NCBI RefSeq assembly: GCF_003334765.1
Contig: NZ_QOWT01000125.1
Length of the DNA stretch: 427 nt
Reading direction: 5' to 3' (one strand)
Source: Escherichia coli
GTDB taxonomy: Bacteria > Pseudomonadota > Gammaproteobacteria > Enterobacterales > Enterobacteriaceae
Part shown: in pieces, positions 1-427 of the stretch
How positions within the stretch are numbered: the first letter of the stretch is position 1
How the letters are laid out: the number at the start of each line of letters is the position of its first letter
Notes under the pieces: model-generated
What the model was told of the DNA's origin: nothing
The model's database searches: none
What the model saw: only the letters and a program-made list of their open reading frames with translations
Program-made: the position numbers and the translations under genes

Positions 1-427
1 ACTGCGGGCGTAAACACGCATAAAGGCAGCATTTTTTCTTTAGGGCTGCTATGTGCGGCAATTGGCCGTTTGCTTCAGCTCAACCAGCCGGTAACGCCAA
101 CAACCGTATGTTCTACGGCGGCAAGTTTCTGCCGTGGCCTGACCGATCGTGAACTGCGTACCAATAATTCACAACTGACGGCAGGTCAACGGTTGTACCA
201 GCAGCTAGGCCTTACCGGCGCACGCGGTGAAGCCGAAGCGGGTTATCCACTGGTGATCAACCACGCCTTGCCGCATTACCTCACTCTGCTGGATCAGGGA
301 TTAGATCCTGAACTGGCATTGCTCGATACCTTGCTCCTACTGATGGCTACCAACGGCGATACCAACGTTGCATCGCGCGGTGGCGAGGGGGGCCTGCGCT
401 GGCTACAGCGCGAGGCGCAAACATTAT
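1..427 (+). CDS. citG: Internal fragment (5' and 3' partial) of triphosphoribosyl-dephospho-CoA synthase CitG, which makes the precursor of the citrate lyase acyl-carrier-protein prosthetic group. Reading frame 1; the last base (427) is the first base of an incomplete codon.
   Basis: Seen in sequence: frame 1 is open for 142 codons with no stop, while + frames 2 and 3 have stops at 11-13 (taa) and 21-23 (taa); minus-strand frames traced from the 3' end are broken by stops within about 50 codons. The translation carries motifs I recall as typical of the CitG/MdcB family: NTHKG (nt 13-27), [11 protein letters not shown] (nt 217-249) and the glycine-rich [15 protein letters not shown] (nt 349-393). 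From memory, the whole peptide matches the middle of E. coli CitG; I could not verify this by search. Neither the start nor the stop codon is in the window. Confidence 0.9.

Follow-up and report, generated by a model that had tools for sequence, protein, structure and literature searches.

The 427-nucleotide (nt) stretch of Escherichia coli DNA analysed here, referred to as the window, lies inside citG, a gene of the citrate lyase cluster. Translation showed that frame 1 of the plus strand is open across all 142 codons, and each of the remaining five frames contains between 5 and 9 stops. The window scored E=4.1e-36 against the Pfam family CitG (PF01874) and E=6.3e-91 against the NCBIfam CitG equivalog NF007503 (304.7 bits, profile positions 106-247 of 292), scores which place the CitG assignment far beyond chance. 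An Rfam scan of the window returned just mir-4423 at chance level (E=0.86). At 100% identity the window corresponds to positions 4982538-4982964 of NZ_CP007592.1 (strain Santai), within an annotated citG of 888 nt and 295 codons of which it covers nt 316-742 (offset 315 nt, frame 0). This Santai gene belongs to a genomic island, bears no pseudogene flag and encodes WP_001596152.1. Perfect matches to the window were found in eleven complete E. coli genomes, the gene being complete and unflagged in every one. Taken together, these data indicate, with a probability that we put at about 0.92, that the window represents the central part of an intact E. coli citG present as an accessory second copy on a mobile island. 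The annotation of the gene as CitG is in itself routine and not novel, the RefSeq protein being already so named.

The island copy is part of a ten-gene module ordered as a GntR/HutC-type regulator, an Amidohydro_2 hydrolase, a major facilitator superfamily (MFS) transporter, citCDEFXG and acnB, flanked by insertion sequence (IS) remnants and CP4-type island genes. The coordinates of the module and of the features of the window are collected in Table 1. Among 5,426 complete E. coli genomes, two copies were counted in about 45 for citG and in 40 for acnB (~0.8%). An origin of the window from the ordinary core citG, in the dpiBA-citCDEFXG-citT locus, had to be weighed against the island reading, as 5,422 of these genomes carry a citG at 93-99.8% identity to the window and the island allele falls inside the diversity range of the E. 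coli core alleles. However, each of the 24 records that reach 99% identity or more to the window has two citG places, the best single-copy genome reaching 98.6%, and the core citG of Santai itself is just 97.7% identical. Furthermore, the eleven perfect matches all adjoin the island acnB, each stopping 172 nt ahead of it. Since the perfect matches are all in the island copy, the core locus was set aside as the source of the window and we hold it to be very improbable.

Table 1. Coordinates of the features in the window, in the island module and in the core operon of Santai.
Feature	Coordinates	Strand	Remarks
citG internal in-frame fragment (codons 106-247 of 295), island allele	window 1-427	+	100% genome match, profiles
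Block 1, NTHKG, residues 110-114	window 13-27	+	most conserved block of the window
Variable linker, residues 135-143	window 88-114	+	P135S, T139I, V141I and S143A relative to a typical core allele
Block 2 (11 residues), residues 178-188	window 217-249	+	core G-x-R-G-E-A-x-x-G-(F/Y)
T/C site, citG nt 583	window 268	+	sole difference among three island citG (Santai versus B-JRPT-4119 and MS14384)
Block 3 (15 residues), residues 222-236	window 349-393	+	family-conserved part only D225-T226-N227 (nt 358-366) and R231 (nt 376-378)
Ten-gene module	L001 310-11196 (window = L001 8001-8427); L004 4310-15196; L013 1712-12598
Stretches compared, island and core	L001 3342-8573 versus L013 4744-9975, L002 3339-8564 and L015 9654-14879	minus for L015
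Santai core citG	984653-985531 (L015 9654-10532)	minus in L015	altered residues correspond to window nt 348-361

CitG (Enzyme Commission number EC 2.4.2.52) converts ATP and 3'-dephospho-coenzyme A (dephospho-CoA) into 2'-(5''-triphosphoribosyl)-3'-dephospho-CoA and adenine. Its product is loaded by CitX onto CitD, the acyl carrier subunit, which makes citrate lyase active. The CitG reaction, with the release of adenine, was reportedly detailed by Schneider, Dimroth and Bott in 2000. The activity is established for the E. coli CitG by literature that PMC10798043 cites. The island CitG protein would be expressed and active.

To which branch of the family the gene belongs can be read from the full-length protein, which scored 641.1 bits against NF007503 (curated cutoff 477, profile positions 1-291 of 292) and 361.8 bits against TIGR03125 (cutoff 272.3). 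The alternative of an MdcB, the cofactor synthase of malonate decarboxylase, draws on the fact that MdcB and CitG share one Pfam family and that the fragment matches the MdcB model TIGR03132 at E=5.8e-35. At full length, however, the protein reaches 257.5 bits with this model, under its cutoff of 282.35, whereas it passes the CitG models. The genes next to it are citX and citCDEF instead of mdcA/C/D/E/G: citC, citD, citE, citF, citX and citG are contiguous, with a citX/citG overlap of 26 nt, and the neighbourhood consists of cit genes and acnB, not of an mdc operon. As a homologue search listed close CitG orthologues only, the five MdcB proteins that we compared were taken from annotated plasmid mdc operons; they are just 33-35% identical to the island CitG. 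An MdcB identity was thus ruled out because both genomic context and score thresholds oppose it, and its probability is negligible. The island protein has the CitG family fold, and all family-invariant residues (E32, PKPGLVD, GxHxDM, NTH(K/R)G, GxRGEA, DTNxxxR and SPGGxADLL) are at consensus along its 295 amino acids. By threshold, residues, context and fold, the window gene is a bona fide CitG. MdcB nevertheless resembles it in several respects, with the same Pfam family, the same annotated reaction, the residues N110, T111, H112, G114, E182, A183, D225, N227 and R231, and the C-terminal SPGG-x-AD block. In contrast, lysine 113 is replaced by arginine in MdcB, G178, R180 and T226 can be serine, and the gene is located in an mdc operon.

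The preliminary description of this DNA had singled out three motif blocks in the window as conserved in the CitG/MdcB family and free of frameshift or stop. Their positions were confirmed (residues 5-9, 73-83 and 117-131 of the window translation), as was their continuity, frame 1 being open through the whole window. Their conservation was evaluated on an alignment of the island CitG with 140 representatives, CitX-CitG fusions among them, which came from a library clustered at 50% identity and had 37-70% identity to the query. The first block is almost fully conserved, with N110 and T111 each found in 139 of the 140 relatives (99%), H112 in 135 (96%), K113 in 133 (95%, the remaining seven having R) and G114 in all of them (100%). 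In the second block, G178 (100%), R180 (99%), G181 (91%), E182 (92%), A183 (91%) and G186 (97%) are conserved, against A179 (44%), E184 (51%), A185 (22%), Y187 (16%, F in 79%) and P188 (57%), which vary. The third block combines conserved positions, D225 (99%), T226 (85%, S in 13%), N227 (89%) and R231 (98%), with intermediate ones, G233 (71%) and G232 (52%), and variable ones, T222 (4%), N223 (24%), G224 (4%), E234 (9%) and G235 (6%). Residue 222, where this block starts, is polymorphic inside E. coli itself, being T, I or F. The claim of family conservation is therefore borne out for NTHKG and for the cores of the second and third blocks, but not for their edges: on this alignment the TNG and EGG flanks of the third block are lineage-specific, and the boundaries first given are too wide, the real family cores lying within them.

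An alignment of characterised CitG and MdcB proteins had also been proposed as a check of the motifs, and a second alignment was built with the five MdcB proteins and the CitG of Klebsiella, Enterococcus and Clostridium. N110, T111, H112 and G114 of the first block are invariant in it, with K or R at position 113, and so are D225, N227 and R231, whereas G178, R180 and T226 vary like K113. The truly conserved CitG/MdcB residues of the window are thereby narrowed to N110, T111, H112, K/R113, G114, E182, A183, D225, T/S226, N227 and R231. In an AlphaFold2 (AF2) model, the conserved blocks are placed at the starts of helices following loops: NTHKG forms the loop entering helix 113-131, the second block a short helix (178-184) with the loop after it, and D225 is the final loop residue ahead of helix 226-249. 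A role in nucleotide and dephospho-CoA binding had been suggested for the three blocks. The conserved residues at these loop-to-helix transitions, N110, T111, H112, K113, R180, E182, D225, N227 and R231, would bind the triphosphate and dephospho-CoA. Literature and structure searches on the residue-level mechanism of CitG and MdcB yielded neither a structure with bound ligand nor a mutagenesis paper. The single solved relative, Protein Data Bank entry 3H9P (a structural-genomics structure of a putative triphosphoribosyl-dephospho-CoA synthase, 249 amino acids), is 17% identical to the island CitG and matches the family profile at E=0.0095 in its C-terminal third only; DTN...R reads DPL...K in it, and HMMER gave no alignment of NTHKG. 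At this distance, 3H9P is no suitable template for mapping the active site.

From the integrity of the motifs, the preliminary description had argued that the fragment comes from an intact gene rather than from a pseudogene. The conclusion is right, as the window belongs to a complete and unflagged citG of 295 codons, but the reasoning does not suffice. Half of the family-conserved blocks lie beyond the window (E32, PKPGLVD at 37-43, GxHxDM at 48-53 and SPGGxADLL at 275-283). Moreover, frameshifted variants of the gene can look intact over this region. The variant P0158, with 122 member sequences, keeps its frame over the window span, with the first two blocks exact and the third differing by T222I only, at a variable position; its frame shifts once the last residues of the window but one have been read. 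In P0160 the frameshift is inside the final glycine run of the third block, after ...SRGGEG, and in both variants the SPGGxADLL block is lost. These variants come from metagenome and read-assembly sources, where part of them may be sequencing errors, and they are used here solely to show that motif integrity is insufficient. Because of the blocks outside the window, of these variants and of a decayed operon in strain B-JRPT-4119 described below, motif integrity is no proof of an intact gene, and a window of 427 nt with its motifs intact is not enough to distinguish a gene from a pseudogene that was disrupted recently. The integrity of the island citG is shown instead by the matches to complete unflagged genes and by the full-length profile score.

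In public assemblies, many E. coli CitG predictions that are nearly identical to one another (P0001, P0158, P0160, P0161, P0191 and P0238) have a frameshift at or just after the glycine-rich GGEGG, GGCGAGGGGGGCC in DNA. This run, at window nt ~382-394, may be a hotspot of homopolymer-type sequencing errors or of mutation.

The island copy and the core operon were compared over the cit genes. Their homology starts about 10 codons into citC and stops about 4 codons ahead of the citG stop. Because the core homology ends there, the island CitG has 295 residues and the tail ASLTGR, against 292 residues and AQI in the core protein. At the citG/acnB junction (L001 8560-8600), acnB starts 25 nt past the citG stop, with a GGAG ribosome-binding motif ahead of it. 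A second variant of the module is found elsewhere in the chromosome, beside IS100 and lsr. The two variants have their junctions in common, and their head genes match at 99.3-99.9% identity; the citG-acnB junction, being identical in both, is ancestral to the module. From citE through acnB the variants are 97-98% identical, with a synonymous divergence (dS) mostly of ~0.05-0.12. The interior of variant 1 shows 0-4 differences per 300 nt to the core operon of ATCC 25922 (B2-type) and 5-9 to the own core operon of Santai, whereas variant 2 resembles the Santai-type core more closely. The island acnB is ~97% identical to the core acnB. Homologous recombination of the island operon with the core operon in the past best accounts for the mosaic pattern of identity of the two variants, and the module would be a clean example of it.

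Relative to a core allele, the ratio of non-synonymous to synonymous rates (dN/dS) is 0.14 for the window (10 synonymous and 4 non-synonymous changes) and 0.18 for the full citG, and it is 0.19 for citG between the two diverged island variants. All four amino-acid differences of the window sit in the linker 135-143, whose columns are 6-28% conserved. This pattern is consistent with purifying selection. Several points nevertheless weigh against an island copy that is maintained as an intact functional gene. The capture by the island may be younger than much of the synonymous divergence, so that a low dN/dS is no proof of present-day constraint. The tail of the island CitG differs from that of the core protein, in a part which is unconserved across the family. 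In B-JRPT-4119, the island (L003 7302-13196) no longer contains the genes for the GntR regulator, the amidohydrolase and the MFS transporter, nor citC, citD and the 5' portion of citE, and has kept citF, citX, citG (including the window) and acnB intact; the module has partly decayed there. With citC, citD and the 5' portion of citE gone, the citG of this island can at most duplicate what the core operon already provides.

These observations bring in another explanation, in which the island copy is structurally intact yet dispensable or decaying, its motifs being kept only through recent duplication or recombination. In agreement with it, the island cit interior matches a core operon type at 98.5-100% identity, leaving little time for damage to build up, the citC-citE region has already been deleted from the island in one strain, and public data hold frameshifted E. 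coli citG sequences that are still in frame over the window region. On the other side, two island variants with a dS of ~0.06-0.12 in citE-acnB keep all ten module genes open, at dN/dS of 0-0.27 between variants, and in Santai the island citG is the consensus copy whereas the core copy bears a private T226P. We consider this explanation unlikely, and an intact accessory copy remains the preferred reading.

The core citG of Santai encodes AFNGDPNVASRGG, with T222F and T226P, the latter within the D-T-N core. Of the 140 relatives, 137 have T or S at position 226 and none has P, and the allele is unique to Santai among the 5,426 genomes; the family-consensus copy of this strain is thus the island one, which contains the window. 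The two changes could be tolerated, could be deleterious and masked by the island copy, or could be a sequencing error, and the island citG may back up the core citG that has T226P.

As regards the function of the module, the hydrolase is lactonase-like and belongs to Amidohydro_2 (Pfam, E=1e-43), its best NCBIfam match being 4-sulfomuconolactone hydrolase, below cutoff, and the transporter is of the anion-type MFS. A reasonable proposal from this gene content is that the cassette imports a citrate-related compound for AcnB and then citrate lyase. Candidates for this compound, which would pass via AcnB to citrate lyase, include aconitate and lactones of the isocitrate or hydroxycitrate type. 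In a broader and only tentative scenario, the module would be a self-contained mobile catabolic cassette for such a compound, with a cit/acnB interior repeatedly overwritten by recombination with the core, with a foreign head and junctions that both remain fixed, and with citG acting as a backup in Santai. A literature search on this island module of E. coli found no specific account of it. The module, which is the only part of the finding with some discovery potential, is of modest relevance to E. coli accessory metabolism, as a rare island coupling the citrate lyase genes and a second acnB to a new head of regulator, hydrolase and transporter.

Compared with known systems, the island CitG is closest to the core E. 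coli CitG (e.g., WP_000062478.1 of ATCC 25922), to which it is ~96% identical in amino acids. The core locus has the same operon order, the same overlap of citX with citG and every family-conserved residue. It differs in its surroundings, the 3' neighbour of citG being citT instead of acnB, and the cit genes being preceded by the dpiBA-facing promoter instead of the MFS gene. Second cit loci that include citG have been described in Salmonella LT2 (locus II) and in Klebsiella pneumoniae, on a 13-kb citrate fermentation island (PMC2735749), and they show that citrate lyase clusters with citG can be duplicated or carried on islands. The Salmonella and Klebsiella clusters, however, are diverged paralogues found together with citS-oadGAB-citAB, for Na+-dependent citrate fermentation, whereas the cit genes of the E. 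coli island match core alleles at 97-100% identity and have acnB, an MFS gene and an Amidohydro_2 gene as partners.
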